This document shows, in pieces, positions 15,481-60,298 of a stretch of 64,000 nucleotides of DNA. Both the position numbers and the translations under genes were made by a program. The DNA comes from an uncultured Candidatus Saccharibacteria bacterium (GTDB lineage Bacteria > Patescibacteriota > Minisyncoccia > UBA6257 > 2-01-FULL-56-20). Position 1 is the stretch's first letter. Every line of letters starts with the position of its first letter. The stretch covers positions 8,538-72,537 of the forward strand of contig CAZYEL010000002.1 in assembly GCA_964646415.1 (NCBI GenBank), given 5' to 3'. Under the pieces are notes generated by a model. It saw only the letters and a program-made list of their open reading frames with translations. It ran no database searches and was not told the origin of the DNA.

Positions 15481-15550
15481 ATTAGAAATCTAGAATTTAG
15501 GCGGCTAGCAATACGGATCAACGAATAACGCACAAATCATTTATCTATTC

Positions 15551-15590
15551 CATATACAAACTTATTGCACGTGCAATAAGTTTGTATATG
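15551..15590. repeat. 40-bp perfect palindrome catatacaaacttattgcac|gtgcaataagtttgtatatg
   Basis: Read directly from the sequence. It is AT-rich and lies between the convergent EamA pseudogene (+) and uvrA (-). A partial copy of the leader-element arm (atcaacgaataacg, 15517..15530) lies just 5' of it. Confidence 0.8.
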
Positions 15591-15695: not shown

Positions 15696-18269
15696 TTATG
15701 CGCCTGCTCTTCCCAATACTTTGCGGAGATACTCCCCCGTAAAACTTCCTTTCTTACGCGCAATCTCTTCGGGAGTGCCCGCCGCCACAATTTCACCTCC
15801 CTTCTCCCCTCCTTCGGGACCAAGGTCAATCACCCAGTCCGCGGTCTTGATGACGTCCAAGTTATGCTCGATTACGACAACCGTGTTCCCGCGGTCAGCG
15901 AGCCGTTGAAGGACTTGCAGCAATTTATCCACGTCCGCGAAGTGAAGTCCCGTCGTCGGCTCGTCCAAAATATACAGCGTACGGCGCGTGTCGCGCTTCC
16001 CCAATTCCGACGCAAGCTTCACGCGCTGGGCTTCGCCTCCAGAGAGCGTCGTCGCGGACTGTCCTAATTCCAAATACCCCAATCCAACCTCATCCAAAAT
16101 TTTGAGACGATCCGCAAGCCACGGGATATCATCGAAGAATTTCACCGCTTCCTCAATCGTGAGTTTCAAAATCTCAAATATATTTTTACCTTTGTATTCC
16201 ACCGCAAGTGTCTCGCGATCGAAGCGTTTGCCTTTGCAGATATCGCACTGGATATAGACCGTCGGCAAAAAGTGCATCTCGATTGCGAGCGTGCCATGCC
16301 CCTCGCAATTCTCACACCGTCCGCCGGGAACGTTGAAACTAAACCGGCCGGGCTTGTAGCCGCGTACTTTCGCATCTGGCGTTGCGGCAAAAAGGTCGCG
16401 GATAAACGTCCAAGCACCCACATAGGTCGCCGGGTTTGAGCGCGGCGTGCGTCCGATTGCCGACTGGTCAATGTTAATCACGCGGTTCACGTGCTCCAGT
16501 CCGAAGATGCCGCTGTGCACGCCTTCCTTATAGCTCGAACCATGCCACCGGTTCGCGAGCGTCTTGTAAAGCACGTCATACACCAAACTCGACTTCCCCG
16601 AACCCGAGACGCCGGTTACCGCCGTGAAACGCCCTACGGGAATTTCCACGTCGATGTTCTTGAGATTATTTTCCTTTGCGCCTTTGATGGAAATGAACTT
16701 CGTCCCCTTGCCGATGCCGCGCCGTTCGCTCGGAACATTAATAAATCGCTTGCCCCGGAGGTACTCAAGCGTAAGCGACTGGGGAAATGCTCCCATGCTC
16801 TTCGCCGAGAGTATTTCCGGTATCGCACCTTGCGCCACAATCTTTCCTCCGTGTACTCCCGCGCCGGGTCCGAAATCAACCAGGTGGTCGCTCTCACGGA
16901 TGGTTTCCTCATCGTGCTCCACCACCACAATCGTGTTCCCCAGGTCACGGAGGTCATGAAGCGTCTTGATAAGCTTTGCATTGTCGCGCTGATGCAATCC
17001 GATCGTCGGCTCGTCCAAAATATAGAGCGTCCCCACGAGGCGCGAACCCACCTGCGACGCGAGGCGTATCCGCTGCGCTTCGCCGCCGGAAAGTGTTCCC
17101 GCCCGCCGCTCCAACGTAAGGTACTCGAGCCCCACATCAAGCATAAACTTCAGCCGGTTTTTAATCTCACGGAGCGGCGCTTCGGCAATTTCCTTGAAGC
17201 GTGCGGCGCCTTTAAGTTCAAGCTTTCCCATAAAGTCATATGCCTCGCCGATGGAGTAGGCAACCACTGATGCGATATTTTTCCCCTGAATCAAGACGTT
17301 CAGACTTTCCTCTTTAAGCCGTTTTCCCGCGCATATAGGACAAATTTTCTCGGACCACAAATCCTCCGTGCCCAATCCATGGCATTGCGGACATGCACCA
17401 TACGGACTGTTAAACGAGAAAAGGCGCGGTTCGATTTCCGGAAACGAGAATCCGTCGTTCGGGCAGGTAAATTTTGCGGAAAGAGACACCTCCTTGTCCG
17501 TCACGACCGTCACCACGTCATTGCCGTACTTCAAAGCAGTCTCAATCGCTTCGGAGAGCCGTAAGCGGTTGTCCTTTATGTCTTGTCCGCCAGAGGCGGA
17601 TCCGCCTTCGGCGGAAAATCTCACGCCCGCGGGAATACGGTCAACTACCAAATCAATGGAATGAGCTTTGTAGCGGCTAAGCTCCACCCGCTCACGGAGC
17701 GTTTTATAAATTCCATCCACACGCACCTCGGAGAACCCCGCATTCAAAAAGTCGTAGAGCAGCTGGTAATACTCCCCTTTCCGTCCGCGCACGACAGGCG
17801 CAAGAATCACAATGTTTTTCTTTGATTTATTTTCATTCGAAATCTGAATCGCAACATCCACAATTTCCTCATTCGTCATTTTCTGGATTTCTTTGCCGCA
17901 CTTGGGACAATGCGGCTTTCCCGCACGGGCAAAAAGCACGCGGAGATAGTCGTAAATTTCCGTCACCGTTGCCACCGTCGAGCGCGGATTCGAAGAGTGG
18001 CTCTTTTGGTCAATCGAAATTGCCGGTGAGAGCCCTTCAATATCGTCTATATCCGGCTTATCAAGCCGCCCCAAGAACTGCCGCGCATATGCGGAGAGCG
18101 ATTCGATATAACGGCGCTGGCCTTCCGCGAAAATCGTATCGAACGCCATGCTCGATTTCCCCGAACCGGAAAGGCCGGTAAACACGACCATTTTGTCGCG
18201 CGGTATTTCGAGATTTATGTTCTTTAAATTGTGCTCGCGCGCTCCTTTTATGATGATTTTGTCTTTCAT
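15696..18269 (-). CDS. uvrA: Excinuclease ABC subunit A
   Basis: Two ABC ATPase modules ([18 protein letters not shown]) with zinc-finger Cys clusters. I set the start at the ATG giving [18 protein letters not shown]. The 39-aa track extension is an alternative-start artefact. Confidence 0.95.
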
Positions 18270-21788: not shown

Positions 21789-22814
21789 TCACTTCCACCC
21801 CTGCTCCATAATTCTCCATCCGACCTGTTCTTGCGGGACTTGAATCGGCCCCTGCGGGGTCTGCTGCACCATATTCACTTGCTGTTTGCGGTATTCGATG
21901 GAAAGCTCAAAGTGGCGTGATTCCTGCCAACTTTCGATAAACGCAATCTTATATTGCTTTCGATTTTGCATAGCATTTATACCCAACTCGTTTTCCGGGT
22001 TCCAGAGCGTTTCAAGGTCCATATCTTTCCTGTACTCCTCAAACAGCTCCGTCATCGCCTTCGCAAGAAGGTTATCCGCGTACGCAACCGACTTCAAACC
22101 CAAGTCCTCCTTCGCCTCCTTTCGCCCGATGAAATACTGGTGCGAGTAAAGTTTTTCGGTGAAGTAATCAACAATCTTTTCCACTTCATCATCCTTCATT
22201 GGCGCTTTATGACTCTTCAGCAACCGCTTCGCGAGGATGCGGATGAGGTTATGAATACGGTTTACGTTCCCGAGCGCCAAAGGATGAATCTGCGGATTCG
22301 ACTCCACGAATTTCGAGAAGATACGCGAAAGCTCTTCGTCGTTCTTGATACCGAACTTATTTTTCGCCAAATCGAAATATGCCATCACGTCCTCGACGGA
22401 AATCGGGATTCTGTTCTGCGGGTTCTGGGGGTCTTGCGGGTTGAAAACATTCGCCGTTGAGGGGTCGATCGGCGAGATTTCTGAAAGGTCGCTCATCGCA
22501 ATTTCATCCGCGCCGAGAGCAATCATCGTCGCCGCACTGTGCGCCTTATACGGCACGAGTACGGAAAACTTATCACAATACTCCCGAATCATGGACACAA
22601 TCCTCCACGGCACCATTGTGTCGCCTCCGGCACTATAGAGAAACAGGTCGATATTCTGGGTTTTCCCGATTGCGCGGAGTTGCTTGCTCACCACGGGAAT
22701 CACGTCCATCGCAATCCGCGCGTTCACCGGTCCTGTCCGGTCGCTTGTGACATAGGTAATTACCCGCGAATTCCGTAGTCCTTGTATCTGATGTATGAGT
22801 TGTTTCTTATCCAT
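21789..22814 (-). CDS. SDH-family (ClpP-fold) serine protease (AT-rich cassette, gene 1)
   Basis: The core IDLFLYSAGGDTMVPWRIVSMIREYCDKFSVLVPYKAHSAATMIALGADEIAMSDLSEISPIDP matches the serine dehydrogenase proteinase (ClpP-class) core (...HTPGG...AMSGGT.IALAADEI...PVDP). About 170 extra C-terminal residues follow. Confidence 0.7.
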   Translation of the reverse strand: MDKKQLIHQIQGLRNSRVITYVTSDRTGPVNARIAMDVIPVVSKQLRAIGKTQNIDLFLYSAGGDTMVPWRIVSMIREYCDKFSVLVPYKAHSAATMIALGADEIAMSDLSEISPIDPSTANVFNPQDPQNPQNRIPISVEDVMAYFDLAKNKFGIKNDEELSRIFSKFVESNPQIHPLALGNVNRIHNLIRILAKRLLKSHKAPMKDDEVEKIVDYFTEKLYSHQYFIGRKEAKEDLGLKSVAYADNLLAKAMTELFEEYRKDMDLETLWNPENELGINAMQNRKQYKIAFIESWQESRHFELSIEYRKQQVNMVQQTPQGPIQVPQEQVGWRIMEQGWK

Positions 22815-22858
22815 CGCAATAAGGCAATTATACTCCAGTCATCCCAACTTTCCAACAG

Positions 22859-22904
22859 TTTCGTACTATTCGCTTATTCGTACGAATAAGCGAATAGTAC
22901 GAAA
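22859..22904. promoter_or_regulatory. 46-bp perfect palindrome tttcgtactattcgcttattcgta|cgaataagcgaatagtacgaaa at the 5' end of the AT-rich cassette
   Basis: Read directly from the sequence. It is centred on GTAC. It lies 45 nt upstream of the protease start and 44 nt downstream of the MazG-like stop. Confidence 0.75.
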
Positions 22905-22947
22905 GAATGACCACCCAACAGCCAGAAATCCGTATATGCGATTCTTC

Positions 22948-41074: not shown

Positions 41075-41114
41075 CCCCTCATTCTACCTTTCGCGCGAAA
41101 GGTAGAATGAGGGG
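41075..41114. promoter_or_regulatory. 40-bp perfect palindrome cccctcattctacctttcgc|gcgaaaggtagaatgagggg, about 110 nt upstream of secA and 30 nt downstream of the ArsR-family gene
   Basis: Read directly from the sequence. Its core TACCTTTCG-CG-CGAAAGGTA is related to the motifs at 41447..41470 and 20858..20881. Confidence 0.7.
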
Positions 41115-48803: not shown

Positions 48804-48835
48804 GACTTATAACTTATAACGAATGCCGTTATTAG

Positions 48836-50503
48836 TCATAAGTTATTAGTTTTTGCCGCACTCGGCAGCCTGTCCGGCGGCACGTTGTAATAATTTAGCA
48901 TGAATTGCGCAAGGCTTTGGAACGCGGGCACGACGGAGAAGCCCGCAAGCGGCGCATCGGGCGGCTGGTCGAGCTTGATAAGAATGACAAAGCGGGGGTT
49001 GGTTGCCGGCCCGAATCCGACGTACGTATTGACAACATTTTCGGTATACCCTCCTTTTTTGAAATCAGGCACGAACGCGGTGCCGGTTTTCCCCGCAATG
49101 GCGTATCCGTTCACGCGGGCAACCGCCGCCCGGTCGACTGCGGACACCATCATGCCGGTGACCTGCCGCGCGGCATCCTCGCTCACCGCGCGCCGCACCA
49201 CTTTTGGTCCAAGACTCGCATCAACATACGGGCGCATAAGATTCCCGCCGTTCGCAATCGCGCCCACGGCCTGGAGAAGTCCGAGCGGCGTCACCGCAAT
49301 CCCCTGCCCGTAAGAAGCGGTGGCAAACACGATATCGCGCGCCCCCCGTTCGAGAAGCGGCCGGAGACTCCCCTTCACCTCGCCGGGGAGCGTAATGCCG
49401 GTCTTCTGGTCCAGCCCGAAGCGCCGGAGATATTCCAAAAAGGGAACATTGCCAAGCTTCTGCTGCGCGAACACCGCGCCGGTGTTCAACGAATGCTCGA
49501 TTGCATACGTCATGGAAACCTTCCCATGCTCACCGCGCGTCGCATAATCGAAATTTTTGATGGTATACCCGTTCATCGTGAGCATGCCTTTATCAACATA
49601 GGTGGTACTCGAAGCAATTTTCCCCGCGTCGATGGCGCCCGCCATGGTAACCACCTTGAGCACCGAGCCAGGCTCGTAAATCCGCTGCACCGAAGGATTC
49701 ATGAAATGCTCAAGCGGAAAAGTCCTGTAGGAATTCGGGTCGAATGTCGGGTAGCTCCCCATCGCGAGAATTTTCCCCGTCTTCGGTTCCGCGATGAGGA
49801 TGCTCCCTCCCTGCGCGCGGTATTCCGCCACAAGGTCTTTCAAGACGCGCTCCGTCTCGGCCTGAATGGTGGGGTCAAGCGTGAGCACCACATCCCCGCC
49901 GGATTGTGATGCGGTGAATTTTCCGTCTTCTTCGACTCCCGGCACGCCCTTCAGCGTGTCGTCAAAAAACTCCTCCACCCCGTACCGCCCCTTTTCCGCC
50001 TCGCCGCTTGCATCCGGCGCCACAAATCCCAGGACCTGCGCCCCAAGCGTCCCGTTCGGATATGACCTTCCGGACATGGCATCCACATATATTCCCTTCA
50101 AGTCCAGCGCCGCAACGGCGCCTGCCGTCGCCTCATCGGGCCGCTTTGAAAGAAGCACGTACAAACTGCCCTGCCGCGAAAACTTCGCGCGAAGCTCGTC
50201 GACGGAAAGGGGCACCACTCCCGCAAGAGTGTTCGCCGCCTCTTCAGGGTCGTCGATTTCTTTGGGAACGGCGTAGATGGTCGGAAAATCTTTGTTGAGC
50301 GCCATAGGAAACCGCGTGCCGTCTTTTCCCGTAAAATAAACAAGCCCCCGCGGCGCCTCAAACGACGCTATGGCGCGGTACTGCGACTGCGCACGGGCAA
50401 GAAATTGCTCCCCGCGCACAAGCTGCAGGTCGTACAAGCGGCCAATGAGGGCAAGATACCCGAGTGCGATGCCGAATATCACTGCCCCGAAACGGAACGC
50501 CAT
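48836..50503 (-). CDS. ftsI: Penicillin-binding protein 2 / FtsI-type transpeptidase
   Basis: An N-terminal transmembrane helix, the dimerisation domain, and the transpeptidase motifs (SVLK-like, SxN, KTG: AGKTGTA). Confidence 0.9.
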   Translation of the reverse strand: MAFRFGAVIFGIALGYLALIGRLYDLQLVRGEQFLARAQSQYRAIASFEAPRGLVYFTGKDGTRFPMALNKDFPTIYAVPKEIDDPEEAANTLAGVVPLSVDELRAKFSRQGSLYVLLSKRPDEATAGAVAALDLKGIYVDAMSGRSYPNGTLGAQVLGFVAPDASGEAEKGRYGVEEFFDDTLKGVPGVEEDGKFTASQSGGDVVLTLDPTIQAETERVLKDLVAEYRAQGGSILIAEPKTGKILAMGSYPTFDPNSYRTFPLEHFMNPSVQRIYEPGSVLKVVTMAGAIDAGKIASSTTYVDKGMLTMNGYTIKNFDYATRGEHGKVSMTYAIEHSLNTGAVFAQQKLGNVPFLEYLRRFGLDQKTGITLPGEVKGSLRPLLERGARDIVFATASYGQGIAVTPLGLLQAVGAIANGGNLMRPYVDASLGPKVVRRAVSEDAARQVTGMMVSAVDRAAVARVNGYAIAGKTGTAFVPDFKKGGYTENVVNTYVGFGPATNPRFVILIKLDQPPDAPLAGFSVVPAFQSLAQFMLNYYNVPPDRLPSAAKTNNL

Positions 50504-50796: not shown

Positions 50797-50852
50797 GAAA
50801 GTAGAACTTAGGATTTAGCCATTAGAAGTTATGAGTGTCTAATTTCTACTGG

Positions 50853-51734
50853 CTAAGTTCTAATGGCTATCCGTGCGGCGCGCAGTTTTGCCGAACGACT
50901 CCGGGGATTCACTGCAATTTCTTCCTCGGAAGCAGTCACGGGCTTTTTGGTGATAATTTCGAGCGCCCCCTGCGCCGCCATCTCCCGAAACATTGTTTTC
51001 ACGATTCTGTCTTCGAGCGAATGGAATGAAATAATCACGACGCGTCCTCCGACACGCACTATCTTCGGCAACTCCAGAATCACGCGGCGGAGATTTTCAA
51101 GTTCGCCGTTCGCGTAAATCCGCAGGGCCTGGAAGGTGCGCGTGGCGGGGTGTATCCTCCCCCGTTCGTAATTTCCCGGAACCGCCGCGAAAACGGTTTC
51201 CGCAAGTTCCTTCGAAGTCAGAATCGGCGTCTGCTTCTCCCGCATCGCAATCGCCCGGGCAATCCGCATCGCGTATCGTTCTTCGCCGTAATCGCGGATA
51301 ATCCGCACCAGCTCGCGCTCGGGAGTTTTCCGGAGCAGGACCGCGACAGGCTCGCGGCTTCCGTCGTAGGTCATGAGAAGCGGCTCATCCCGCTCGAAGC
51401 TGAATCCCCGGGGCATATCCAGCTGTTCCGACGAGAACCCCAAGTCAAGGAGCAATCCATCCGCGTTCGGCAGGTTTCGCTCCGCGAGAATTTCCGGAAG
51501 GTCGGCGTAATTGCCATGGACAAGCACTATGTTTTCGCTATTCGCCATCCGCTCTTTGCTCTTTGCGAGCACGCGCTCATCCCAATCGATTCCCAAAAGT
51601 TTCCCGTCCGGTTTAACTTTTTCAAGAATCGCTTTCGCATGTCCCCCGCCGTTCACCGTCCCGTCAATTACGAACTTCCCCGGCGCAAGCGCCAGATATT
51701 GCAAAACTTCTTCTAAAAGAACAGGCGTATGCAT
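50853..51734 (-). CDS. rsmH: 16S rRNA (cytosine1402-N4)-methyltransferase
   Basis: The start MHTPVLLEEV and the motif DGTVNGGGHA. I trimmed it to the ATG at 51734; the track M at 51752 is a TTG. Confidence 0.9.
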   Translation of the reverse strand: MHTPVLLEEVLQYLALAPGKFVIDGTVNGGGHAKAILEKVKPDGKLLGIDWDERVLAKSKERMANSENIVLVHGNYADLPEILAERNLPNADGLLLDLGFSSEQLDMPRGFSFERDEPLLMTYDGSREPVAVLLRKTPERELVRIIRDYGEERYAMRIARAIAMREKQTPILTSKELAETVFAAVPGNYERGRIHPATRTFQALRIYANGELENLRRVILELPKIVRVGGRVVIISFHSLEDRIVKTMFREMAAQGALEIITKKPVTASEEEIAVNPRSRSAKLRAARIAIRT

Positions 51735-51802: not shown

Positions 51803-52234
51803 TTAAATTCCAAGTTCCCCCAGCTTCTCCGCAATTTCTTCCGACGCCCCTTCCGTCTTCCGCTTGTACTCCGCCCATCGGGCGCTGTCCCAAATCTCCG
51901 CTCTGCTGTGGAGCCCCGCAAACGTCACTTCTTTCGAAAGACCCGCATACTTCCGGAGATAATCGGGAACAAGAATCCTTCCCTGACCGTCGAGCGCCAC
52001 ATCCATCGCGCCCGCAAGCATAAGCCGTACGAACGCCCGCGAGTTCGCCTGCGCGAGCGGCAGGGCAACCAGCTTCGCCGCAAGCGCTTCCCACTCCTTC
52101 GTCGCAAACAAAAACAAACAATTGTCCAAACCGCGCGTGATGATGGTGCCGACGCCAAGCGCGTCCTTAAACTTGGCCGGTATTGCCACCCGACCTTTTG
52201 AATCCATTGTGTGGTTGTATTCTCCGAGCAACAT
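51803..52234 (-). CDS. mraZ: Transcriptional regulator MraZ
   Basis: The duplicated MraZ domains with DxxxR motifs (MDSKGRVAIP, LDGQGRILVP). Confidence 0.9.
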   Translation of the reverse strand: MLLGEYNHTMDSKGRVAIPAKFKDALGVGTIITRGLDNCLFLFATKEWEALAAKLVALPLAQANSRAFVRLMLAGAMDVALDGQGRILVPDYLRKYAGLSKEVTFAGLHSRAEIWDSARWAEYKRKTEGASEEIAEKLGELGI

Positions 52235-52242
52235 GTTGCTTT

Positions 52243-52312
52243 ATCAACGAATACCGAATGGATTGCGAATTTACGAATTCGTACATTCGAAATAGATTCG
52301 TTATTCGCTGAT
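52243..52312 (-). repeat. Conserved leader element, copy A, ending 8 nt upstream of the mraZ ATG
   Basis: Plus strand atcaacgaataccgaatgg...ttcgttattcgctgat. It has about 19-bp terminal inverted repeats and shares both arms with the copies at 58777..58859 and 59411..59489. Confidence 0.75.
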
Positions 52313-52515
52313 GGTTATACCCAGAAGTGAGGACTTATCCACAGCTTTATCCACTTCCCCCCACTTTGATACAATCTTATACCACTTTTATCTACTGTCA
52401 AAACAATTAAAAACTCGCGAGGAAAACAAAAAATGCCTTATTTTTCAAGGCAATTCTCAAGACAAGACACAAACTATGCACAGTTCCCCTTTACGGGGGC
52501 TTCCCCACTCTCGAT

Positions 52516-53205
52516 TCAGGCCTTTCCGCGAACAAGTTTAAGATTTTTCACTTCCTCATACACGGTCCCGAAAACCATCCCCAGGAAAAAACCGTAGATG
52601 TATTCCTCAAGAGGGATTCCAAGAACAAGCACGCCCCATGTTCCCTGAAAATTCCACTCGCGCACGATGAACCCCCCGAACGCGAAGTCCACGAAGCGCA
52701 GCACAAGCACATACAGCGCCATGAACGTAACGCCCGCGAGCGCGCTTGGCTTTGCAAGGTCCGGGCGCGTCACAAGGAAGTAAGGCGCGAGGAGCGTCAC
52801 CACAATGAACCATGCCCAAAGAACGGAGTAGGACGTATATAACTTCACGAACACGAGAACGGCGGTGGACAAAAGAAGCGAACCGTAAATCATGTACGCG
52901 TGCGCGCGGCGGGGATGGAAACGCCGCGAGGGGACAAGCGCGTAGCCGAAAATCTCTTCATAGAGCGACGCGGCGACCCCGCCGATAAAAAAAGTGTGGA
53001 GCAGGCTCTCGACGTCGAACAGCCCGAAGAATTTGTGTATCACCGCCGGATTCCAGTATTCGGGCACAAAAAGCGGCTGGGTGAATCCGAACGGAAGAAA
53101 CAGGAAACTCACGAACAAAATCTCGTACCGGAGGTCTTTGCGGTAGAGAAAAAGCGCGAGCCATATAAGGCCGAAGATAACCGAGGAAGTGAGGTATGCG
53201 TACAT
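52516..53205 (-). CDS. Lycopene-cyclase-domain membrane protein (CrtYcd-like)
   Basis: Polytopic, with PLEEY-type motifs (IPLEEYIYGF). Confidence 0.45.
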   Translation of the reverse strand: MYAYLTSSVIFGLIWLALFLYRKDLRYEILFVSFLFLPFGFTQPLFVPEYWNPAVIHKFFGLFDVESLLHTFFIGGVAASLYEEIFGYALVPSRRFHPRRAHAYMIYGSLLLSTAVLVFVKLYTSYSVLWAWFIVVTLLAPYFLVTRPDLAKPSALAGVTFMALYVLVLRFVDFAFGGFIVREWNFQGTWGVLVLGIPLEEYIYGFFLGMVFGTVYEEVKNLKLVRGKA

Positions 53206-53209
53206 GGCA

Positions 53210-53959
53210 TTACGCCTTTCCCAAAAATACCTTCTCCAATATCCCGCTCTCCACTATTTTTTTCGATTCTCCTTCCGCAACTACTTTTCCTTTATCGAGC
53301 ACATACGCGCGGCTCGCGATGGAAAGTAGGGAAACAAGATTATGCTCCACGATAAGTATCGCGGTTCGGTGCCGGCCTGCCCGCCGAAACCTCAGCGTAG
53401 GCGGGTCGCTTATTTCTTTTATTTTTGCAAACACTTCTTTCACGATTTTGGGAGCCAAGCCAAGCGAGGGCTCGTCCAAGAGCAATACTTTGGGTTCGGT
53501 AATCATGCCGCGCGCAATTGCGAGCATCTGCTGCTCGCCGCCGGAGAGCATTCCCGCACTGCGGCTCCGCTTGTGTTTCAAGACCGGAAAGAAGTCCATC
53601 ACCTCCACGATGCGCCGCTTTCGCTCTGTTTTGTCTTTTACCAAAAATCCCCCCACCTCCAAATTTTCTTCGACGTTCAATCCCGTGAACACCCGCCGCC
53701 CCTGCGGCACGAAAGAAATACCGCGTGCAACAATTTCGTGCGGCACCGGCTTGATTGCTGCGCCATGCCAACGCACCTCACCGCTTTCGAGAGGCGCGAG
53801 TCCGAATATCGCTTTCAAGATGGTGGACTTCCCCGCTCCGTTCGGCCCCATGAACGCCACCACTTCCCCCTCGTCAAGTGAAACGCTCGCGCCGTCGAGT
53901 GCTTTGACACCGCCATAATGCACATGCACATTGTTTACTTGTAGTAACATGTCTTTCAT
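53210..53959 (-). CDS. livF: Branched-chain amino acid ABC transporter ATP-binding protein (LivF-like)
   Basis: Walker A GPNGAGKST, signature LSGGEQQM, Walker B LLLDEP. It has about 11 extra residues (PPTLRFRRAGRH) before the H-loop. Confidence 0.85.
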   Translation of the reverse strand: MKDMLLQVNNVHVHYGGVKALDGASVSLDEGEVVAFMGPNGAGKSTILKAIFGLAPLESGEVRWHGAAIKPVPHEIVARGISFVPQGRRVFTGLNVEENLEVGGFLVKDKTERKRRIVEVMDFFPVLKHKRSRSAGMLSGGEQQMLAIARGMITEPKVLLLDEPSLGLAPKIVKEVFAKIKEISDPPTLRFRRAGRHRTAILIVEHNLVSLLSIASRAYVLDKGKVVAEGESKKIVESGILEKVFLGKA

Positions 53960-54046
53960 AAATTCTAAATTCTAATATCGAAATTCGAAACAATATCTAA
54001 TTTCAAATGTTTAAAATTCAAAACGGTTTGGGTTATTGTCCTCCAA

Positions 54047-54060
54047 AGGCGGATCCGCCT
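54047..54060. repeat. REP-like palindrome aGGCGGATCCGCCt in the livG-livF spacer
   Basis: The 12-bp perfect core GGCGGATCCGCC. A second copy at 54950..54961 has a similar flank, ctcc..ag/GGCGGATCCGCC/t.cgg.gg. Confidence 0.6.
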
Positions 54061-54131
54061 CGGGCGGAAGATTTTGAACATTGGGATTTGTTTAGGATTT
54101 CGGATTTAGATATTAGGATTTGTGGCGAGCT

Positions 54132-54878
54132 TCATTCGCCAAGATATGCTTCCACCACCTCCCTCCTCGAGAGCACCTCATCCGGTTTCCCTTCCGCGAG
54201 AAGTTTCCCCGAATCGAGCACAAAAACGTAATCCGTGAGGCGGCGGATAAGCCCCATGTCGTGCTCCACCAAAATAATCGTTTTGCCCGCCGCTTTGAGC
54301 GCGCGGAACACTTCCGCCACCGTTTCCACCATTGCCGGGAAAAGTCCCGCGAAGGGCTCGTCAAAAAGATAAATATCCGAACGCATGGCATATGCCCTGG
54401 CAATCTCCAGAAGCTTTCGCTGTCCATAGGAAAGATTCACCGCAAGCTCGTTCCTCTTCTCCCAAAGCCCCACAAGCCGCAGCACTTCCTCCGCTTGCTT
54501 GAGGTGAAATTCGCTGTGCCGCTCAAACAACGCTCCGAATACGCCGCGTTCGGTGAGCACGAAGAGAATGTTGTCCAAGACGGGCATCTGCTCAAAGAGC
54601 CGCACATTCTGGAACGTCCGCGTGATGCCGTACGCGGGCAACTCCTGCGGCAAAATCCGCTTGAGCGCAACGCCGCTCACCACCACCGCGCCGCCGTCCA
54701 TGGGGAGAAGTCCGCTTATCACATTGATAAGCGTGGTTTTCCCCGAACCGTTCGGACCCACAAGCGCGGTGATGCTCCCCTTCTCTATTTTGAGCGAAAG
54801 GTTATCCACCGCGTACACTCCCCCGAAGTGCTTTGCAAGGTTCTTTATCTCAAGCGCGATCATGATATAACGATGCAA
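54132..54878 (-). CDS. livG: Branched-chain amino acid ABC transporter ATP-binding protein (LivG-like)
   Basis: Walker A GPNGSGKTT, signature LSYGQRKL, Walker B YLFDEP. Confidence 0.85.
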   Translation of the reverse strand: MHRYIMIALEIKNLAKHFGGVYAVDNLSLKIEKGSITALVGPNGSGKTTLINVISGLLPMDGGAVVVSGVALKRILPQELPAYGITRTFQNVRLFEQMPVLDNILFVLTERGVFGALFERHSEFHLKQAEEVLRLVGLWEKRNELAVNLSYGQRKLLEIARAYAMRSDIYLFDEPFAGLFPAMVETVAEVFRALKAAGKTIILVEHDMGLIRRLTDYVFVLDSGKLLAEGKPDEVLSRREVVEAYLGE

Positions 54879-54949
54879 ATATACTAATGCGTACTAATTA
54901 TACGAATCGGAATTCCTATTGGTATCATTAGCATGAATTCTCCGCCAGA

Positions 54950-54961
54950 GGCGGATCCGCC
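54950..54961. repeat. REP-like palindrome GGCGGATCCGCC in the livM-livG spacer
   Basis: The second copy of the 12-bp palindrome, nested inside ctccgcc...ggcggatccgcc...cggagg. Confidence 0.6.
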
Positions 54962-54994
54962 TTCGGAGGAGTATATTAATATTAGCATCGCGTA

Positions 54995-55876
54995 TTAGAA
55001 TTTATACTCCCCCATTATTCCCTGCGGCCTGTATAACATAAAGAGAATGAGCGCCAAGCCATAAACCGCCTGCTGCATATTCGCCGCAATGCTTGCAGGA
55101 AATCCCGCAAAGCGCAGCGCTTCGGGAAGCAGTATAAGGATGAGCGCACCCACGAGAGACCCCCGGATGTTCGCAAATCCCCCAACCACCACAACGGCAA
55201 GGACAAGTACCGAAGTCATTACGTCAAAAGTAGAAGGGTCAATGAACGCGAGGTATGACGCGAAGAGTGCTCCGGCAAGTCCCGCACACGCGGCAGCAAT
55301 GCCGGACACCGCAACTTTATACGCAAGCGTATGATACCCGAATACGCGCGCCGCCTCTTCATCTTCGCGAATCGCTTTGAGCACTCTCCCGAACGAGGAA
55401 GATACGACTCTCCGTGCAAACCAATACACCATACCCAGCAAAATAACGGTGAGAAAAAGAAATAAAATCGGCGTACCAATCCGTATCCCCAGAAAAGTTA
55501 CGGGCAGCGAGAAGGGGCGGCCGATTCCCGGGATTCCCAGCGGTCCATTCGTAAGACTTTCCCAATTCACGAATACGCTCACCACAAGATAGTTGAACGC
55601 TATGCTTCCAAACACATAGTAGTCGCCCCCCAGCCGCGAGAAAACCCACCCGGCGCATGCTCCTATCACCGCCGCGATCAATATTCCCGAAAGAGCGGCG
55701 AGAAAAAATCCCATGCCGAGCTTGGTCATAAGAATTGCCGCTGCGTAGGCGCCGATGCCGAAAAATGCCGCATGCATTACGGACACAAGACCGGTGAATC
55801 CCACAACCAAATTCAAGCTGACGCCTAAAATGGCGTAGATGGAAAATAAGGTGGCGAGGTGGATAAAATAAGACAT
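54995..55876 (-). CDS. livM: Branched-chain amino acid ABC transporter permease (LivM-like)
   Basis: About 8-9 transmembrane helices and the Liv permease family pattern. Confidence 0.8.
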   Translation of the reverse strand: MSYFIHLATLFSIYAILGVSLNLVVGFTGLVSVMHAAFFGIGAYAAAILMTKLGMGFFLAALSGILIAAVIGACAGWVFSRLGGDYYVFGSIAFNYLVVSVFVNWESLTNGPLGIPGIGRPFSLPVTFLGIRIGTPILFLFLTVILLGMVYWFARRVVSSSFGRVLKAIREDEEAARVFGYHTLAYKVAVSGIAAACAGLAGALFASYLAFIDPSTFDVMTSVLVLAVVVVGGFANIRGSLVGALILILLPEALRFAGFPASIAANMQQAVYGLALILFMLYRPQGIMGEYKF

Positions 55877-55929
55877 AACAAATTACAAAATCCAAAATCC
55901 AAAATCCCAGCTTTGATATTTGAGCTTTG

Positions 55930-56799
55930 TCATTTGGATTTTCCTAAGATTCCCTGCGGTCTGAAAATCAAAAATAGCGTAAGCAACCCGAATGCAATCG
56001 CTCCCTTCCACTGGCTTGGGATAAACCAAATTGCAAAGTTTTCAACAAACCCCAGGAGAAACGCCCCGAGCACTCCTCCCGCCATATTCCCGATACCGCC
56101 CACAATGGATGGAATCGCCCCTTCTATCACGATGAATAACCCCATGTTCGGCTGGATACCGGTGTCCATTCCCACAAGCACTCCCGCAAATCCCGCGAGC
56201 GCGGCACCCAGAAAAAATATCCAAGAAATGACGCGATTGGTGTTTATTCCCAACATCTTTGCCACCTCCTCGTCATCCGAAAGCGCACGAATCACTTTCC
56301 CAAACATCGTAAAGCGCATCAGGAAAAACGATGTGACGCTTACCGCCAGGGCAAGCCCGATGATCCACAGCTGCACACCGGTAACGGATGCCCCCGCTAT
56401 CTCAAACACGCGCCCCCCTTGGGAATCGGAGAGCAGAAAAAACTGGCTGCTGAATATCACCGAGAGTATGGCTTGCGCAACAGTAAACAGCCCAAGCGAT
56501 GCAACAAAATGTGCCAGGGGTTTCGCGCGCCGCTTCCGCAGCGGCTTAAACACAAATATATCCGAAAGCGCCCCGGCAGCACCTCCGGCAAGCGTTCCCA
56601 AAATCATGCTCGGCAAGATTCCCCACCCCATCCCCCGCAACACGAAAAACGCTCCATACGCGCCCACGGCGGCGTAGCTCCCGTGCGCCATGTTAATGAA
56701 CCGTGTCGCTCCGAAAATAAGATTGAATCCGAGCGTGATAAGCGTATATATCGCTCCCGCAATCAGGCTGTTCGCGACAAGCTGGGCGAAAATGTCCAT
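55930..56799 (-). CDS. livH: Branched-chain amino acid ABC transporter permease (LivH-like)
   Basis: A polytopic permease with the typical LivH architecture. Confidence 0.8.
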   Translation of the reverse strand: MDIFAQLVANSLIAGAIYTLITLGFNLIFGATRFINMAHGSYAAVGAYGAFFVLRGMGWGILPSMILGTLAGGAAGALSDIFVFKPLRKRRAKPLAHFVASLGLFTVAQAILSVIFSSQFFLLSDSQGGRVFEIAGASVTGVQLWIIGLALAVSVTSFFLMRFTMFGKVIRALSDDEEVAKMLGINTNRVISWIFFLGAALAGFAGVLVGMDTGIQPNMGLFIVIEGAIPSIVGGIGNMAGGVLGAFLLGFVENFAIWFIPSQWKGAIAFGLLTLFLIFRPQGILGKSK

Positions 56800-56880
56800 A
56801 GAAAGCGTTAAGCTTTAAGTGATAAACGATAAGAAAAAACCGCGCATACGCAAGATTCAGTAATTCTAGCGGGTTATGAA

Positions 56881-56911
56881 GCAAAAAAGCAAAAGCCCCG
56901 CAGAATGGGGC
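56881..56911 (-). terminator. Intra-operon Rho-independent terminator or attenuator after the substrate-binding protein gene
   Basis: The minus strand reads gcccc-attctgc-ggggc followed by ttttgcttttttgc. Confidence 0.55.
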
Positions 56912-56957
56912 CTTTGCCACTTATCACTTATCGCTTCGCACTCAAGCAATATTCCTG

Positions 56958-58121
56958 CTATTTCTGCTCCGCCGCCTTCCCGTCCTTCACCACTTTCACG
57001 ATGTAGCTTGCACTTACCGGGTCGCCATTCGCATCAAATGCAACTTTCGCCGCAGAAACGCCTCCAGTGTACTCGGTTTTATAGAGCTCGTTCTTTATCG
57101 CCGTGGAGTCGGTTCCAACCTTCGCCATCACCTGCGCGAGAATCTTGATGCCATCGTACGCCCCGGGGCTGCATGCAATCACATTCTCACTCCCCGTTTT
57201 TTCTTTCATCTTCGCCTTAAACGCATCCGAGAGCGGGGCTGACACCACCGTGAACAAAGCTCCTTCTCCCGCAGCTCCCACATCGGTCCAAACCTTCGGG
57301 TCATCCCAAGCGTCCGCGCCAAAGAGTGGTACGCCAAGCTTCAAATCTGCCGCCTGCTTAATGCCGATAATTGAGTCTCCGGTATAGCCCGCGAAGTAAA
57401 CAATGTCGGGTTTTGCGGCTTTGATTTTGGTAATCTGCGTTCTAAGATCACGCACCGCCTGGTCATACCCTTCGCTCGCAACAACCGTACCTCCAAGCTT
57501 TACGAATGTATCCTTAAACACGCCGCTTACCCCCACCCCCCAATCGCTTTTCACATAGAGAACACCCACCTTCCGTTTCCCCAACGTCGCATAAGCGTAG
57601 TTTGCACCAAATGTTCCCTGAAGAAGGTCAGAGGGATAATCCCGGAAAATATAATCTCCCGCCTGCGTAACCGAAGGCGCCGAAGAGCAGTACGAGAGCA
57701 CCACGCGCTTTGCCTGCTCCGCCGCGCTCGCAAACGCCATTGTCTCGCCCGAGCAGGCACCGCCAAGAATCACCGGCACATTATCCGCATTAATAAGCTT
57801 GTTCGCCGCATCCGAGCCGTCTTTTCCATTACACCTCCCGTCTTCGTAAATCACCCGAAGCGGGCGGCCGTTTACTCCCCCGGCAGCGTTTACCTCTTCA
57901 AGTGCAATCTCCACTGCGGCTTTCGCGTTCTGCCCAAGATTCGCCGTGTCCCCCGTAAGCGGCCCGATAAACCCGATGGTTATGGGTTGCGCCACAGCCT
58001 GCCCGGGCGCCGCCGGACCGTTCGCCGTCTCCGGCGACTGGAGCAAGGCATACACCCCCGCAAGCACCGCTATGATAATTACCACTCCCAACACCAATCT
58101 TCCTGAACTGTTCATGTCCAA
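56958..58121 (-). CDS. livK: Branched-chain amino acid ABC transporter substrate-binding protein (LivJ/LivK-like)
   Basis: A signal anchor and the type I periplasmic-binding fold (Leu/Ile/Val-binding family). Confidence 0.8.
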   Translation of the reverse strand: MDMNSSGRLVLGVVIIIAVLAGVYALLQSPETANGPAAPGQAVAQPITIGFIGPLTGDTANLGQNAKAAVEIALEEVNAAGGVNGRPLRVIYEDGRCNGKDGSDAANKLINADNVPVILGGACSGETMAFASAAEQAKRVVLSYCSSAPSVTQAGDYIFRDYPSDLLQGTFGANYAYATLGKRKVGVLYVKSDWGVGVSGVFKDTFVKLGGTVVASEGYDQAVRDLRTQITKIKAAKPDIVYFAGYTGDSIIGIKQAADLKLGVPLFGADAWDDPKVWTDVGAAGEGALFTVVSAPLSDAFKAKMKEKTGSENVIACSPGAYDGIKILAQVMAKVGTDSTAIKNELYKTEYTGGVSAAKVAFDANGDPVSASYIVKVVKDGKAAEQK

Positions 58122-58260
58122 TATAAATATAAAATAGGTGACCTTTTATTTGCCTTCATTTTACTACCCTCCCAACATAGGATGCAAGCCTCCGTTCTTT
58201 TGGTAGTTTATGATGAAGTTTGCGGGCAACGCCTTTTTGTTTTACCATCTTCAATTGTAA

Positions 58261-58332
58261 GCGCGTTTAGCTCAGTGGCAGAGCGTTCCGTTCACATCGG
58301 AAAGGTCGCAGGTCCGATCCCTGCAACGCGCA
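58261..58332 (+). tRNA. tRNA-Val (anticodon CAC)
   Basis: Acceptor GCGCGTT/AACGCGC, D-arm GCTC-AGTGGCA-GAGC, anticodon stem TTCCG/CGGAA with loop TTCACAT, T-arm GCAGG-TCCGATC-CCTGC, discriminator A. No CCA is encoded. Confidence 0.85.
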
Positions 58333-58340
58333 CAAATAAC

Positions 58341-58370
58341 AAAAGAGCGGCTCCCGCCGCTCTTTTGCAT
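58341..58370. terminator. Bidirectional Rho-independent terminator (tRNA-Val on +, rplL on -)
   Basis: The hairpin agagcgg-ctcccg-ccgctct, flanked by aaaa and tttt. Confidence 0.6.
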
Positions 58371-58403
58371 TTCTGCGCCCTACTGCTTACTACATACCAC
58401 CTA

Positions 58404-58769
58404 CTATTCTATAACCGCCTTCGCCCCCGCCGCTTCGAGTTTCTTTTTTACTTCCTCCGCCTCTTCCTTCTTCAATCCTTCCTTCACCGTCTTCGGCGCG
58501 GCGTCCACCAAGTCCTTCGCTTCTTTGAGTCCCAGGCTCGTTACCTCGCGGATAACCTTGATGACATTAATCTTTGTCGCACCCGACTCCTTAAGCACCA
58601 CATTGAAGCTCGTCTGCTCCTCTACGGCGGCGGCCGGCGCGCCTCCGCCGGAAGCTACGGCGGCCGAAGCCGAAATACCGAACTTTTCTTCAAGCTTCTT
58701 CACCAACTCCGCAAGCTCAACCACGGTGAGCGTTTCCACCTTCGCAATGATGTCGTTAAGTTTTTCCAT
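58404..58769 (-). CDS. rplL: 50S ribosomal protein L7/L12
   Basis: The start [31 protein letters not shown], an Ala/Gly hinge and the C-terminal domain ...[18 protein letters not shown]. The start is trimmed from the track extension. Confidence 0.9.
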
Positions 58770-58776
58770 GTTCTTT

Positions 58777-58859
58777 ATCAACGAATATCGAATGGATTGC
58801 GAATGACCCAATAAAACCTCGCAATTCGTAAATTCGTAAAATATTCGTTATTCGATGAT
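58777..58859 (-). repeat. Conserved leader element, copy B, ending 7 nt upstream of the rplL ATG
   Basis: Plus strand atcaacgaatatcgaatggattgcgaatg...ttcgtaaaatattcgttattcgatgat. Confidence 0.75.
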
Positions 58860-58877
58860 TTACCCTTACGACCTTTT

Positions 58878-59402
58878 CTAGGTTTTGGCCTGTTTTGATT
58901 TTTCCTGGAGCAAATACATAAATGAGCGCAACGGCGCCGCAAACATACCGAGAAGCTGGGCCAGCAAAACCTCGCGCGGCGGGAGCTTGCCGATGAAGAG
59001 CACCTGGTCCGCGCCTACAGGGATTTTTCCTTTCGCGTCATATGCGCCCAAGATGTGCTTCACCCACATTCCCTTCTCGCCCCCTTCCGGCACTTCAAGC
59101 TTCGAGAAAAAGTTGTACACGGGCCCGCTGATTTTCTCCATATTGCCCTTCGAGAAAATCGTTCCCACCGAGCCGCCGAACTGCTTCACATCGTATGCAA
59201 TCCCCTTCTCCTTCAAAAGCACGTTCAAAAGCCGCTTCTTGATGACAAGAAACTCGGCGCCCGCTTCGCGCGCCGCTTTCCGCAGCTTCTTCAGGTTCTC
59301 GTTCGAAACGCGCGAAAAATCCGCGAAGACGACTGCTTCGCTTTCCGCAAGGAGCTTCCGCCCCTTTTCGAGTTCCGATGCTTTTTGGGATTTGGTCTTC
59401 AT
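58878..59402 (-). CDS. rplJ: 50S ribosomal protein L10
   Basis: The L10 fold consensus (...AVVFADFSRVSNENLKKLRKAAREAGAEFLVIKKRL...). Confidence 0.9.
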   Translation of the reverse strand: MKTKSQKASELEKGRKLLAESEAVVFADFSRVSNENLKKLRKAAREAGAEFLVIKKRLLNVLLKEKGIAYDVKQFGGSVGTIFSKGNMEKISGPVYNFFSKLEVPEGGEKGMWVKHILGAYDAKGKIPVGADQVLFIGKLPPREVLLAQLLGMFAAPLRSFMYLLQEKSKQAKT

Positions 59403-59410
59403 GGTTCTCC

Positions 59411-59489
59411 ATCAACGAATATCGAATTGAGAACGAATAAACGAATGAATCTCATTCGCAAATTCGTACAATATTCGTTATTCGCTGAT
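59411..59489 (-). repeat. Conserved leader element, copy C, ending 8 nt upstream of the rplJ ATG
   Basis: Plus strand atcaacgaatatcgaattgagaacgaataaacgaatg...aattcgtacaatattcgttattcgctgat. A TATAAT box lies immediately upstream on the transcribed strand. Confidence 0.75.
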
Positions 59490-59633
59490 TATAAATAAAA
59501 ACAGCCCCCTCCAAAGGCCGTCCGAGAATGACGATGACTCGTCATATTTCCTCGGCGGGGCTTACTCCTTGCGAATGCCCGCTGTCTTTGGATTTGGGTA
59601 CTATAGCATGCGCCCCACCGACGTCAACCTCCC

Positions 59634-60251
59634 TTAATGGTTATGTTGCTTGATCGCAAACACATGCGTTTTTTCTGCCGGGGAATCCTCGGCGAGAAGA
59701 AGCAGCTCCGAATTTCCGAAGTGAAACATGGAGAGGACACGCTCCCACGGAAGGCCATAATACGCCGCATAGAGCATCTTCCCCATATCGCCATGCCCGA
59801 CAAGAAGCACGTTCCCTTCGGCGTGCTTCTCTTTCACCCAGTAGATTACCTTTCTGCTCCGCTCCATCTCTTCCGGGAATGTTTCCGCGCCCTGGGGATT
59901 GATGAAATAAACCACCGGGTCGGCTTTGATGATGTCGGGGGTGCACAGCTTTTCGATGTCCTGCACCCGCTTTCCCGTCATAACGCCGAAATCCCGCTCG
60001 GTGAGGTCATCAAGCACGACGGGCGCTTTCGCTCCCAGCCCCTCCGCAATAATCTCCGCCGTACGCCGCGCCCGTACAAGAGGCGAGGCATAAATCGCAT
60101 CAAACGGAATCCCCTGCGTTTTGATGTTTGCCGCAAGCCGCTCCGCCTGGGCCATACCGAGCTTCGTGAGCGGCGTATCGCGCCGCCCGTTCAAGATACC
60201 TTTCGCATTGTCCTCGTCCTGCCCGTGCCGGGCAAGATATATCCGAAGCAT
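59634..60251 (-). CDS. Histidine phosphatase (phosphoglycerate mutase family)
   Basis: The RHG motif in MLRIYLARHGQDEDN and the second catalytic His (LLVGHGDM). Confidence 0.75.
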   Translation of the reverse strand: MLRIYLARHGQDEDNAKGILNGRRDTPLTKLGMAQAERLAANIKTQGIPFDAIYASPLVRARRTAEIIAEGLGAKAPVVLDDLTERDFGVMTGKRVQDIEKLCTPDIIKADPVVYFINPQGAETFPEEMERSRKVIYWVKEKHAEGNVLLVGHGDMGKMLYAAYYGLPWERVLSMFHFGNSELLLLAEDSPAEKTHVFAIKQHNH

Positions 60252-60298
60252 GCAAGTAGCATAATGCATTTTGTGTCAATTTGGGATACACTCAAAGC

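Follow-up and report, generated by a model that had tools for sequence, protein, structure and literature searches.

The 64,000-nt stretch of patescibacterial DNA analysed here (contig CAZYEL010000002.1, positions 8,538 to 72,537; hereafter the window) carries three copies of a short palindromic element built from CGAAT boxes, placed a few nucleotides before the start codons of mraZ, rplL and rplJ. Comparison with other genomes and metagenomes makes it probable that they belong to a family of selfish elements resembling the intervening sequences (IVSs) of 23S rRNA and the REPINs, in which a GxxExxY nuclease or some other protein would recognise the boxes. The stem, transcribed together with its neighbours, would be cut as in an IVS, and the flanking cistrons would still work, since initiation in this lineage needs no Shine-Dalgarno (SD) sequence and accepts very short leaders. 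The window copies would thus be members of the family without an open reading frame (ORF). The element is apparently undescribed: a literature search covering the strings CGAATAGCGAATAG and CGAATAACGAAT, GxxExxY/PDDEXK_3 and MITEs (miniature inverted-repeat transposable elements) of Patescibacteria returned no description of it.

All three copies are on the minus strand, as are all element coordinates below unless another strand is given. They occupy 52243..52312 (70 nt, before mraZ), 58777..58859 (83 nt, before rplL) and 59411..59489 (79 nt, before rplJ), which is where a preliminary description, made from the letters of the window alone, had placed them; its statement that they end 7-8 nt before the ATG also holds, the measured distances being 8 nt for mraZ (ATG at 52234), 7 nt for rplL (58769) and 8 nt for rplJ (59402). 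The genes that follow, likewise on the minus strand, are mraZ at 51803..52234 (Pfam MraZ, 3e-38), rplL, encoding L7/L12, at 58404..58769 (Ribosomal_L12, 8.5e-28) and rplJ, encoding L10, at 58878..59402 (Ribosomal_L10, 3.5e-15). Each arm consists of four CGAAT boxes with spacings of 7, 11 and 8 nt, repeated as a mirror image in the opposite arm. On the minus strand the mraZ copy, with ATCAG...TTGAT termini and 4+4 intact CGAAT/ATTCG boxes, reads ATCAG-CGAAT-AA-CGAAT-CTATTT-CGAAT-GTA-CGAAT-TCG-TAA-ATTCG-CAATCC-ATTCG-GT-ATTCG-TTGAT, then AAAGCAAC-ATG. The rplL copy has ATCAT...TTGAT termini and 4+3 boxes, one inner box having decayed, and reads ATCAT-CGAAT-AA-CGAAT-ATTTTA-CGAAT-TTA-CGAAT-(19 nt)-ATTCG-CAATCC-ATTCG-AT-ATTCG-TTGAT, then AAAGAAC-ATG. 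The rplJ copy again has ATCAG...TTGAT termini and 4+4 boxes, in the order ATCAG-CGAAT-AA-CGAAT-ATTGTA-CGAAT-TTG-CGAAT-(7 nt)-ATTCG-TTT-ATTCG-TTCTCA-ATTCG-AT-ATTCG-TTGAT, then GGAGAACC-ATG. With 8 (mraZ), 7 (rplL) and 8 (rplJ) boxes, the copies are the densest box clusters of the window.

That the three copies form one conserved family is borne out by two kinds of search. With at most one mismatch, CGAATAACGAAT matches the window 6 times (0.57 expected) and the proximal-arm motif 7 times (0.5 expected), and in neither case did any of 100 shuffles give as many. A covariance model built from copies in other genomes only recovers exactly these three sites (60-70 bits, E ~1e-11 to 1e-13) and finds no further window site above 22 bits. 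Their common orientation, to which the preliminary description attached weight, is real as far as the small asymmetries of the ends go (ATCAG or ATCAT distal, TTGAT proximal); as evidence it says little, because the element is almost perfectly symmetric and the model scores the two strands nearly alike (67.6 and 67.0 bits for the mraZ copy, 60.9 and 62.3 for the rplL copy, 70.1 and 67.1 for the rplJ copy). In other genomes this end asymmetry has no link to the side on which the gene lies. As predicted RNAs, the mraZ copy folds at -27.6 kcal/mol (z -6.3) and the rplJ copy at -34.8 (z -6.2), and the rplL copy, with one inner box lost, folds weakly (-18.8 kcal/mol, z -1.15).

A solo terminal-arm fragment, ATCAACGAATAACG, stands on the plus strand at 15517..15530 between convergent genes, with the terminus, the whole of box 1 and half of box 2. 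A copy that has otherwise decayed probably left it behind, because a chance match to an exact 14-mer would be unlikely in two-strand sequence of 128 kb. The preliminary description had reported this fragment next to a 40-bp palindrome at 15551-15590, and both are there. The L10 protein of the window is found, identical, on contig JACPQV010000030.1 of assembly GCA_016190325.1, which bears the NCBI name Candidatus Liptonbacteria (Patescibacteria/Parcubacteria lineage), and identical copies of the element are present in five more assemblies of the same species. The window thus comes from a MAG (metagenome-assembled genome) of Candidatus Liptonbacteria.

Beyond this species the family was sought with two patterns. 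A pair of boxes separated by a gap from an inverted pair matched at least 120 loci in a genome collection, and a single four-box arm matched at least 120 metagenome contigs, mainly from groundwater and sediment (names such as L001, L181 or L247 denote the genome or metagenome loci compared). Among the matches listed, the architecture ATCAA-(CGAAT)4...(ATTCG)4-TTGAT recurs in MAGs of Saccharibacteria, Gottesmanbacteria, Parcubacteria and Peribacteria. When 38 canonical copies are aligned, boxes and termini are invariant and the spacers are free; in longer copies a fifth box pair (CGAA followed by TTCG) is frequent at the centre. The four-box arm has no match among the viral contigs of IMG/VR, and the element is therefore not evidently phage-borne.

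Full-length members of the family have a gene between the arms. In 13 metagenome loci among the matches listed, an arm with all boxes in one direction and an arm with all boxes in the other lie 0.4-1 kb apart around an ORF of about 131-134 aa. The encoded protein is a GxxExxY protein (TIGR04256, 9e-34; Pfam PDDEXK_3, 4e-32), a member of the PD-(D/E)XK nuclease family with an intact D...ExK triad. The fit between gene and arms is tight: the last box supplies the ATG of the GxxExxY gene (CGAATG) and the stop codon shares bases with the box that opens the 3' arm, the arms of such copies having 4-5 boxes. Some of these copies have additional cargo, either a 163-aa ORF without a Pfam or NCBIfam match or a glyoxalase-like ORF. 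An unbiased test took three homologues picked by protein similarity alone (60-73% identity), and all three proved to be flanked by split arms, which brings the ORF-bearing loci to 16. The first of them, L250, has the order rpsO-[arm]-GxxExxY-[arm]-NYN-pnp; the second, L251, has rpsG-[arm]-GxxExxY-[arm]-fusA, at the same junction as in L181; the third, L252, is a Bacteroidota locus with CATCTG...CAGATG termini, which also has an ORF-less hairpin 3 nt before hisS. Copies without an ORF far outnumber those with one. GxxExxY/PDDEXK_3 is a large family without known function and without a solved structure; a 2012 survey of PD-(D/E)XK nucleases lists it as 'Unknown' (PMC3424549), and a sequence search of the PDB with the cargo protein gave no match.

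The content between the arms also bears on the simplest mobile-element account, in which the hairpins are ordinary MITEs of an insertion sequence with a DDE transposase and their proximity to start codons merely reflects how tiny the spacers are in a streamlined genome. The elements do have terminal inverted repeats, are small, occur in several copies with a patchy distribution and have left a remnant, and native rplJ-rplL spacers measure merely 21-31 nt. However, no transposase was found between the arms, all 16 ORF-bearing copies encoding GxxExxY; the window copies show no direct repeat that could mark a target-site duplication, viral contigs give no matches, and the elements adjoin the start codon even if over 50 nt of spacer is free. 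We therefore hold an ordinary MITE to be very improbable. The ends were also compared with integron attC sites (RYYYAAC...GTTRRRY), and this identity was rejected: ATCAAC...GTTGAT is only loosely similar, and on either side stand essential housekeeping genes that belong to conserved operons instead of cassettes. No integrase occurs in the gene lists of the loci examined.

The preliminary description had preferred a lineage-specific cis-regulatory RNA, and the alignment does not support this. Across the 38 aligned elements 84.5% of cells pair, but the pairing comes from the invariant boxes alone, and the variable spacer columns are mainly unpaired. Covariation was below that of shuffled controls, 499-500 of 500 shuffles reaching the observed values, and an independent script found spacer complementarity within a copy to be no higher than between copies. 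G·U wobble pairs were considered as a sign of structure in the sense-strand RNA and discarded: with the elements oriented by their downstream gene, 24 G·U stand against 30 A·C mismatches (p = 0.5), with no bias to the sense strand. Rfam has no family for the hairpin at gathering score, and a permissive search yields chance-level matches to miRNA hairpins only (mir-983, 35-37 bits where the gathering score is 100), so that the element has no Rfam family, in line with the preliminary description. Thus neither covariation nor strand specificity nor an Rfam match was found, and the covariance-model scores are equal on both strands. What is conserved is a symmetric array of sequence boxes, as is characteristic of terminal repeats or of sites recognised by a protein and not of a strand-specific riboregulator. 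A protein-binding role for the CGAAT boxes, which had been named as an alternative at the outset, is plausible.

If the protein were a host transcription factor, the eight boxes could form an operator array that co-regulates growth-related genes. The conserved boxes with free spacers, the strand symmetry, the position between promoter and start codon at mraZ and rplJ and the coherent set of growth and chaperone genes would all suit this idea. Many copies are, however, intercistronic and far from promoters (rplL here; S7, S10, L3, L4, L16, L17 and secY elsewhere), others stand beside 23S rRNA genes, and close relatives are occupied patchily; the arms can be split by a 400-nt nuclease ORF, and the spacings of 7, 11 and 8 nt would not keep the boxes on one helical face. 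An operator array is accordingly an unlikely explanation. A more specific version, a heat-shock operator of the HrcA/CIRCE kind, was suggested by loci at groEL, dnaK, dnaJ and hsp20 and was dropped since most targets are ribosomal-protein cistrons inside operons.

The history of the three sites is visible in relatives. Syntenic loci were compared in eight of them, of which six are described here, the percentage giving the identity of their L10 to that of the window. L247 (88%) has a partly decayed, genome-specific variant at rplJ, the same variant at rplL, and a different insert of about 230 nt at mraZ. L253 (88%) has no CGAAT element and other, unrelated hairpins at rplJ, and a TACGAAA-box variant at rplL; its mraZ region is not covered. 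A variant with CACA...TGTG termini occupies both rplJ and rplL in L248 (83%), where mraZ is not present in the locus. In L249 (76%) rplJ and mraZ are empty and rplL has a degenerate hairpin. The two most distant loci do not cover mraZ: L254 (70%) is empty at rplJ and at rplL (31-nt spacer), and L255 (67%) has no CGAAT element and other, unrelated hairpins at rplJ and an empty rplL site (21-nt spacer). The variant of L253 (1421-1539, in the rplJ-rplL spacer) is a sister form with TACGAAA/TTTCGTA boxes (4+4). The insert of L247, in the 5' untranslated region (UTR) of mraZ at ~17860-18050, is GC-rich and bounded by TTGATAACTCC...GGAGTTCATCAA, where the window has its mraZ hairpin. In the rplJ-rplL spacer, a conserved AAAGGTCG past the rplJ stop codon is kept upstream of the element inserted there.

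Copies on the same contig resemble each other more than copies on different contigs (0.78 vs 0.73, Mann-Whitney p = 0.006), and the paralogous rplJ and rplL copies of one genome (0.81 and 0.84 alike) more than same-site copies across genomes (0.75 and 0.77). From this similarity, the patchy occupancy among relatives and the remnant at 15517 it follows that the element is gained, lost and homogenised within genomes. It is not essential for the regulation of rplJ, rplL or mraZ. The fixed position and orientation of the copies had been taken as an argument against mobility; presence and absence with genome-specific variants in relatives, the arm remnant at 15517 and the nuclease ORF in full-length versions overturn it.

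The tie to start codons, first seen at the three window sites, is a general rule. For the positional count, 77 full elements in loci of other genomes among the matches listed were set against ORFs of at least 60 aa. In 52 of the 77 an ORF starts within 20 nt of one end of the element, at a median distance of 8 nt, the genes being mainly those of ribosomal proteins and chaperones; the earlier claim of closeness to highly expressed or essential genes thus extends far beyond the window. In 21 of these 52 a co-directional upstream gene stops within 10 nt of the far end, so that the element fills the spacer, and in 23 no gene ends within 50 nt on the far side and the element still adjoins the start codon. 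The downstream genes identified by Pfam encode L7/L12 (three times), L16 and L10 (twice each), L2, L4, L17, S9 and S10, further Hsp70 and Cpn60 (twice each), SecY, GAPDH, DnaJ, SSB, ATP-synthase delta, RsmH, MraZ and others; L3, L11, L24 and RpoA were added from a reading of N-terminal sequences. A 9.4-kb contig, L181, illustrates how densely an operon can be populated: in its str/S10 operon, hairpin copies lie between rpsL and rpsG, between tuf and rpsJ, before rplC and between rplC and rplD, together with an ORF-bearing copy between rpsG and fusA and a degenerate arm before tuf.

Several observations extend the picture to other places and other repeats. A canonical Patescibacteria element (L219, 12153-12212) and an alphaproteobacterial heptamer hairpin (L068, 3012-3076) both occupy the rRNA operon spacer immediately 3' of a 23S rRNA gene. 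Among the matches listed, Rhizobiales and other Alphaproteobacteria have hairpins in which a tandem (CGAATAG)n array precedes a (CTATTCG)n array, upstream of atpC (7 loci: L007, L023, L027 from Rhodopseudomonas palustris BisB18, L028, L042, L096 and L116), rplQ (2 loci, L024 and L045) and rpsP (1 locus, L117). Similar heptamer hairpins occur in MAGs of Planctomycetota, Acidobacteriota, Gemmatimonadota, Chloroflexota and Bacteroidota. The 8-kb tiles examined around these heptamer loci gave no GxxExxY ORF.

Such a positional rule calls for a view of how these genes initiate translation. In the window genome and its relatives, SD-like tetramers precede 4-19% of called starts against 12-19% in random sequence. 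As they are not enriched, the lack of an SD sequence between hairpin and ATG is normal for the lineage. Most genes of the window have no SD motif, and in many a TATAAT-like hexamer stands 6-8 nt ahead of the ATG, for example in those starting at 7045 (+), 27508 (-), 24757 (+) and 45705 (-), which suggests leaderless mRNAs. Hairpins of 45-80 nt unrelated to the CGAAT family also occur in the window, at 48804-48850, 50797-50870, 53960-54030, 54879-54940 and 55877-55945, and end 0-10 nt before the starts of murE-like, ftsL-like, livF, livG and livM genes; several are built from tandem units (ACTTATA twice; GAATTT/AAATTC; GGATTTT three times). Hairpins directly in front of the ATG therefore characterise these operons (dcw and liv) in general and not the CGAAT family alone. 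A GC-rich palindrome, CCGCCAGAGGCGGATCCGCCTTCGGCGG, occurs three times (17583-17618, 54039-54068 and 54937-54974), two of its copies lying in spacers of the liv operon.

A domesticated intercistronic RNA signal could account for the rule: the hairpin would be kept for its effect on the transcript, as a processing or stabilising stem or as the 5' edge of the initiation region, and would aid the translation of internal or leader-bearing cistrons in a lineage that lacks SD sequences and is prone to leaderless mRNAs. The position next to start codons even with free space upstream, the strong bias to highly expressed genes, the occupation of the same genes in distant genomes, the lack of SD enrichment and the unrelated hairpins likewise found before murE-like, ftsL-like, livF, livG and livM in the window all speak for it, as do the analogous TAACTGA heptamer repeats, which lie a few nucleotides before starts where ribosome-binding sites (RBSs) are rare (PMC4679880). 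Against it, close relatives without the element still have and express the same genes, the stems contain many internal loops, and neither compensatory changes nor a strand asymmetry were found. In addition, the RNA of the 3' arm that faces the downstream gene is the complement of the 5' arm that faces the element's own ORF, and because the two genes see complementary arm sequences, a sequence-specific RNA signal is unlikely. Domestication is thus possible, and we give it clearly less credence than a selfish origin.

The preliminary description saw a TATAAT, TATAAC or TAAATC hexamer just 5' of each distal arm and concluded that the element was probably the entire 5' UTR, beginning at the transcription start site. 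At rplJ this 'TATAAT' turned out to be the tail of a terminator-like hairpin. An L10-leader-like RNA matches at 59487..59609 on the minus strand (Rfam RF00557, 33.4 bits, sub-threshold against a gathering score of 44, full length over model positions 1-138), with its terminator-like hairpin at 59523-59499 and then the T-rich tail TTATTTATAA; in L248 the L10 leader, not the hairpin, is matched at the equivalent place with 39.1 bits. A promoter-like TTGACG-16-TATAGT, TG-extended, lies 5' of the leader at 59600..59627 on the minus strand, and equivalent hexamers are kept in L247, L248 and L249. The rplJ copy is accordingly placed between the terminator tail of the leader and the start codon. For mraZ, a promoter-like TTGACA-16-TAAGAT at 52374..52401 (minus strand) is followed by GTGG repeats at 52331-52370 that resemble MraZ boxes, with the element about 60 nt downstream of this promoter and repeats; hexamers and repeats are kept in L247 and L249, both without the element there. 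The rplL copy is intercistronic and begins 18 nt past the rplJ stop. A -10 hexamer and start site at the distal arm were rejected in view of the leader match, the terminator tail and the upstream promoter-like hexamers. An outward-facing promoter in the element itself, giving leaderless mRNAs, was rejected too: the terminal TTGAT(A) lacks the conserved A2 and T6 of a -10 box, and if it served as a -35 box, its partner hexamer would lie inside the ORF. What did hold was the separation of the element from the L10 leader. Both lie upstream of rplJ within the same 5' UTR, but the leader-like match stops where the hairpin starts, the hairpin itself has no match to a ribosomal-protein leader, and it is absent in relatives that keep the leader.

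In the surroundings of these genes, rplJ-rplL is uncoupled from rplKA and rpoBC. A histidine-phosphatase gene (59634-60269, minus strand) lies upstream of the pair, and a convergent tRNA (58261-58332, plus strand) followed by the liv ABC-transporter operon lies downstream, an order kept in relatives. Elsewhere in the window, a distant relative of the element is the perfect 46-nt palindrome formed by TTTCGTACTATTCGCTTATTCGT followed directly by ACGAATAAGCGAATAGTACGAAA (22850..22907, unstranded; palindrome 22859-22904). It has TATTCG/CGAATA units in inside-out order, scores 22 bits with the covariance model (E ~0.01) and is situated in a divergent region beside the start of a 341-aa gene at 22814 (minus strand). 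Two perfect 40-bp palindromes, at 15551-15590 and 41075-41114, are related neither to each other nor to the CGAAT element.

For the selfish element that we consider the best explanation, a course of events can be proposed. The hairpin-only copies would be non-autonomous derivatives or relics of ORF-bearing ones, and their conserved boxes would be there to be recognised by the element's nuclease or some other protein and not to form a helix. The elements sit in transcribed spacers, and by analogy with the IVS the co-transcribed imperfect stem of about 30 bp would be excised or cut by a double-strand-specific RNA nuclease such as RNase III. After the cut only a very short leader would remain on the downstream cistron, a state that would be tolerable because the lineage does not use SD sequences. 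Several observations weigh against this explanation. The start-codon rule, with its median of 8 nt even where upstream space is free, and the recurrence of the same genes (rplJ, rplL, groEL, dnaK, rplP and rpsG-fusA) in distant genomes both exceed what a purely neutral parasite would lead one to expect, and both fit selection for function. The boxes are intact at most sites. There is also no GxxExxY gene in the 64-kb window. Finally, transposition or homing events, target-site duplications and clean excision footprints were all looked for without success: the three window copies have no flanking direct repeats, and the empty sites of relatives are too diverged in their flanks for the junctions to be rebuilt.

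A bolder reading goes further. GxxExxY nucleases and CGAAT-box palindromes would together form an unrecognised class of elements across several phyla, IVS-like in mRNA operons, which would home to, or survive only at, positions a few nucleotides before the starts of those genes that are expressed most highly; in Patescibacteria, which lack SD sequences, they would have been co-opted as intercistronic processing and initiation signals, and the (CGAATAG)n hairpins of Rhizobiales (atpC, rplQ, rpsP) would be the same phenomenon. We regard this as speculative and rather doubtful at present.

A fixed DNA architecture around the GxxExxY gene together with hundreds of ORF-less copies provides a testable hypothesis for the substrate of GxxExxY proteins, a family that would gain a defined candidate nucleic-acid partner. 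The long-unexplained IVSs of 23S rRNA become linked to broader hairpin elements in protein-coding operons. For Patescibacteria, the element is a repeated feature exactly at the translation start of ribosomal-protein, chaperone and cell-division genes, and since it lies there in genomes without an SD signal, it may bear on the processing and translation of polycistronic mRNAs in reduced cells. On the practical side, unless such repeats are recognised, they will lead motif- and riboswitch-discovery pipelines astray.

Among known systems, three come close. TAACTGA heptamer direct repeats were described in Beggiatoaceae, Cyanobacteria and Bacteroidetes (MacGregor 2015, PMC4679880). They share with the CGAAT element a period of about 7 nt, an end a few nucleotides before starts in organisms in which canonical RBSs are rare, the inclusion of ribosomal-protein operons and a patchy distribution across phyla. 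In contrast to the CGAAT arms, they are direct repeats in one orientation and of another sequence, with no inverted partner arm and no associated ORF described, and they were proposed to be sites for RNA-binding proteins.

REPINs and their RAYT partners (PMC3116915, PMC3337134) offer a second parallel. In both systems short extragenic palindromic doublets occur in many copies, accompanied by one protein gene between inverted repeats, and both consist of genome-specific families that are homogeneous within a genome and often co-transcribed between genes. The partner of the CGAAT element is, however, GxxExxY/PDDEXK_3 and not a RAYT (an IS200/IS605-type Y1 transposase); its arms are arrays of 5-nt boxes instead of a GTAG-headed REP hairpin, and it is tied to start codons, whereas REPs are mostly found 3' of genes.

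The third system is the IVS. In that of helix 45 in the 23S rRNA of Coxiella burnetii, a terminal inverted-repeat stem of 28 bp and tandem heptamers stand before a small loop ORF of the S23p type, and RNase III excises the element (PMC4990558). The CGAAT element likewise has a terminal inverted-repeat stem with tandem repeats of about 7 nt directly before a small loop ORF. Both are inserted in very highly transcribed DNA, exist in ORF-less or ORF-decaying versions and are patchily distributed, and IVSs are regarded as selfish. The CGAAT element differs in lying in an mRNA spacer just before a start codon and not in an rRNA helix: in the window every copy lies in an mRNA leader or spacer, and only two among all loci are near rRNA, both just 3' of the 23S gene and not inside it. 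Its cargo is a GxxExxY PD-(D/E)XK nuclease rather than a four-helix-bundle S23p/IVP protein, and excision by RNase III, shown for the IVS, would apply to it by analogy. Small cassettes of other kinds are also present in the relatives. A small GIY-YIG ORF adjoining rpmG (L249, 6258-6720; also L001, 2330-2566, and L247, 526-819) is flanked in L249 by 65-nt direct repeats that are 95% identical, each a GC-rich hairpin, and may be another selfish cassette. Between livH and livM, L247 (13400-13873) has a 126-aa 23S_rRNA_IVP ORF (PF05635) within 43-nt inverted arms of TTCAAT-type heptamers; the window has a GGATTTT-heptamer hairpin at the equivalent liv junction. The IVP locus of L247 and the GxxExxY loci therefore present the same design with two cargo families. 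What is new is an IVS- and REPIN-like palindromic element with a PD-(D/E)XK partner, and with it the extension of IVS-type elements to mRNA operons.

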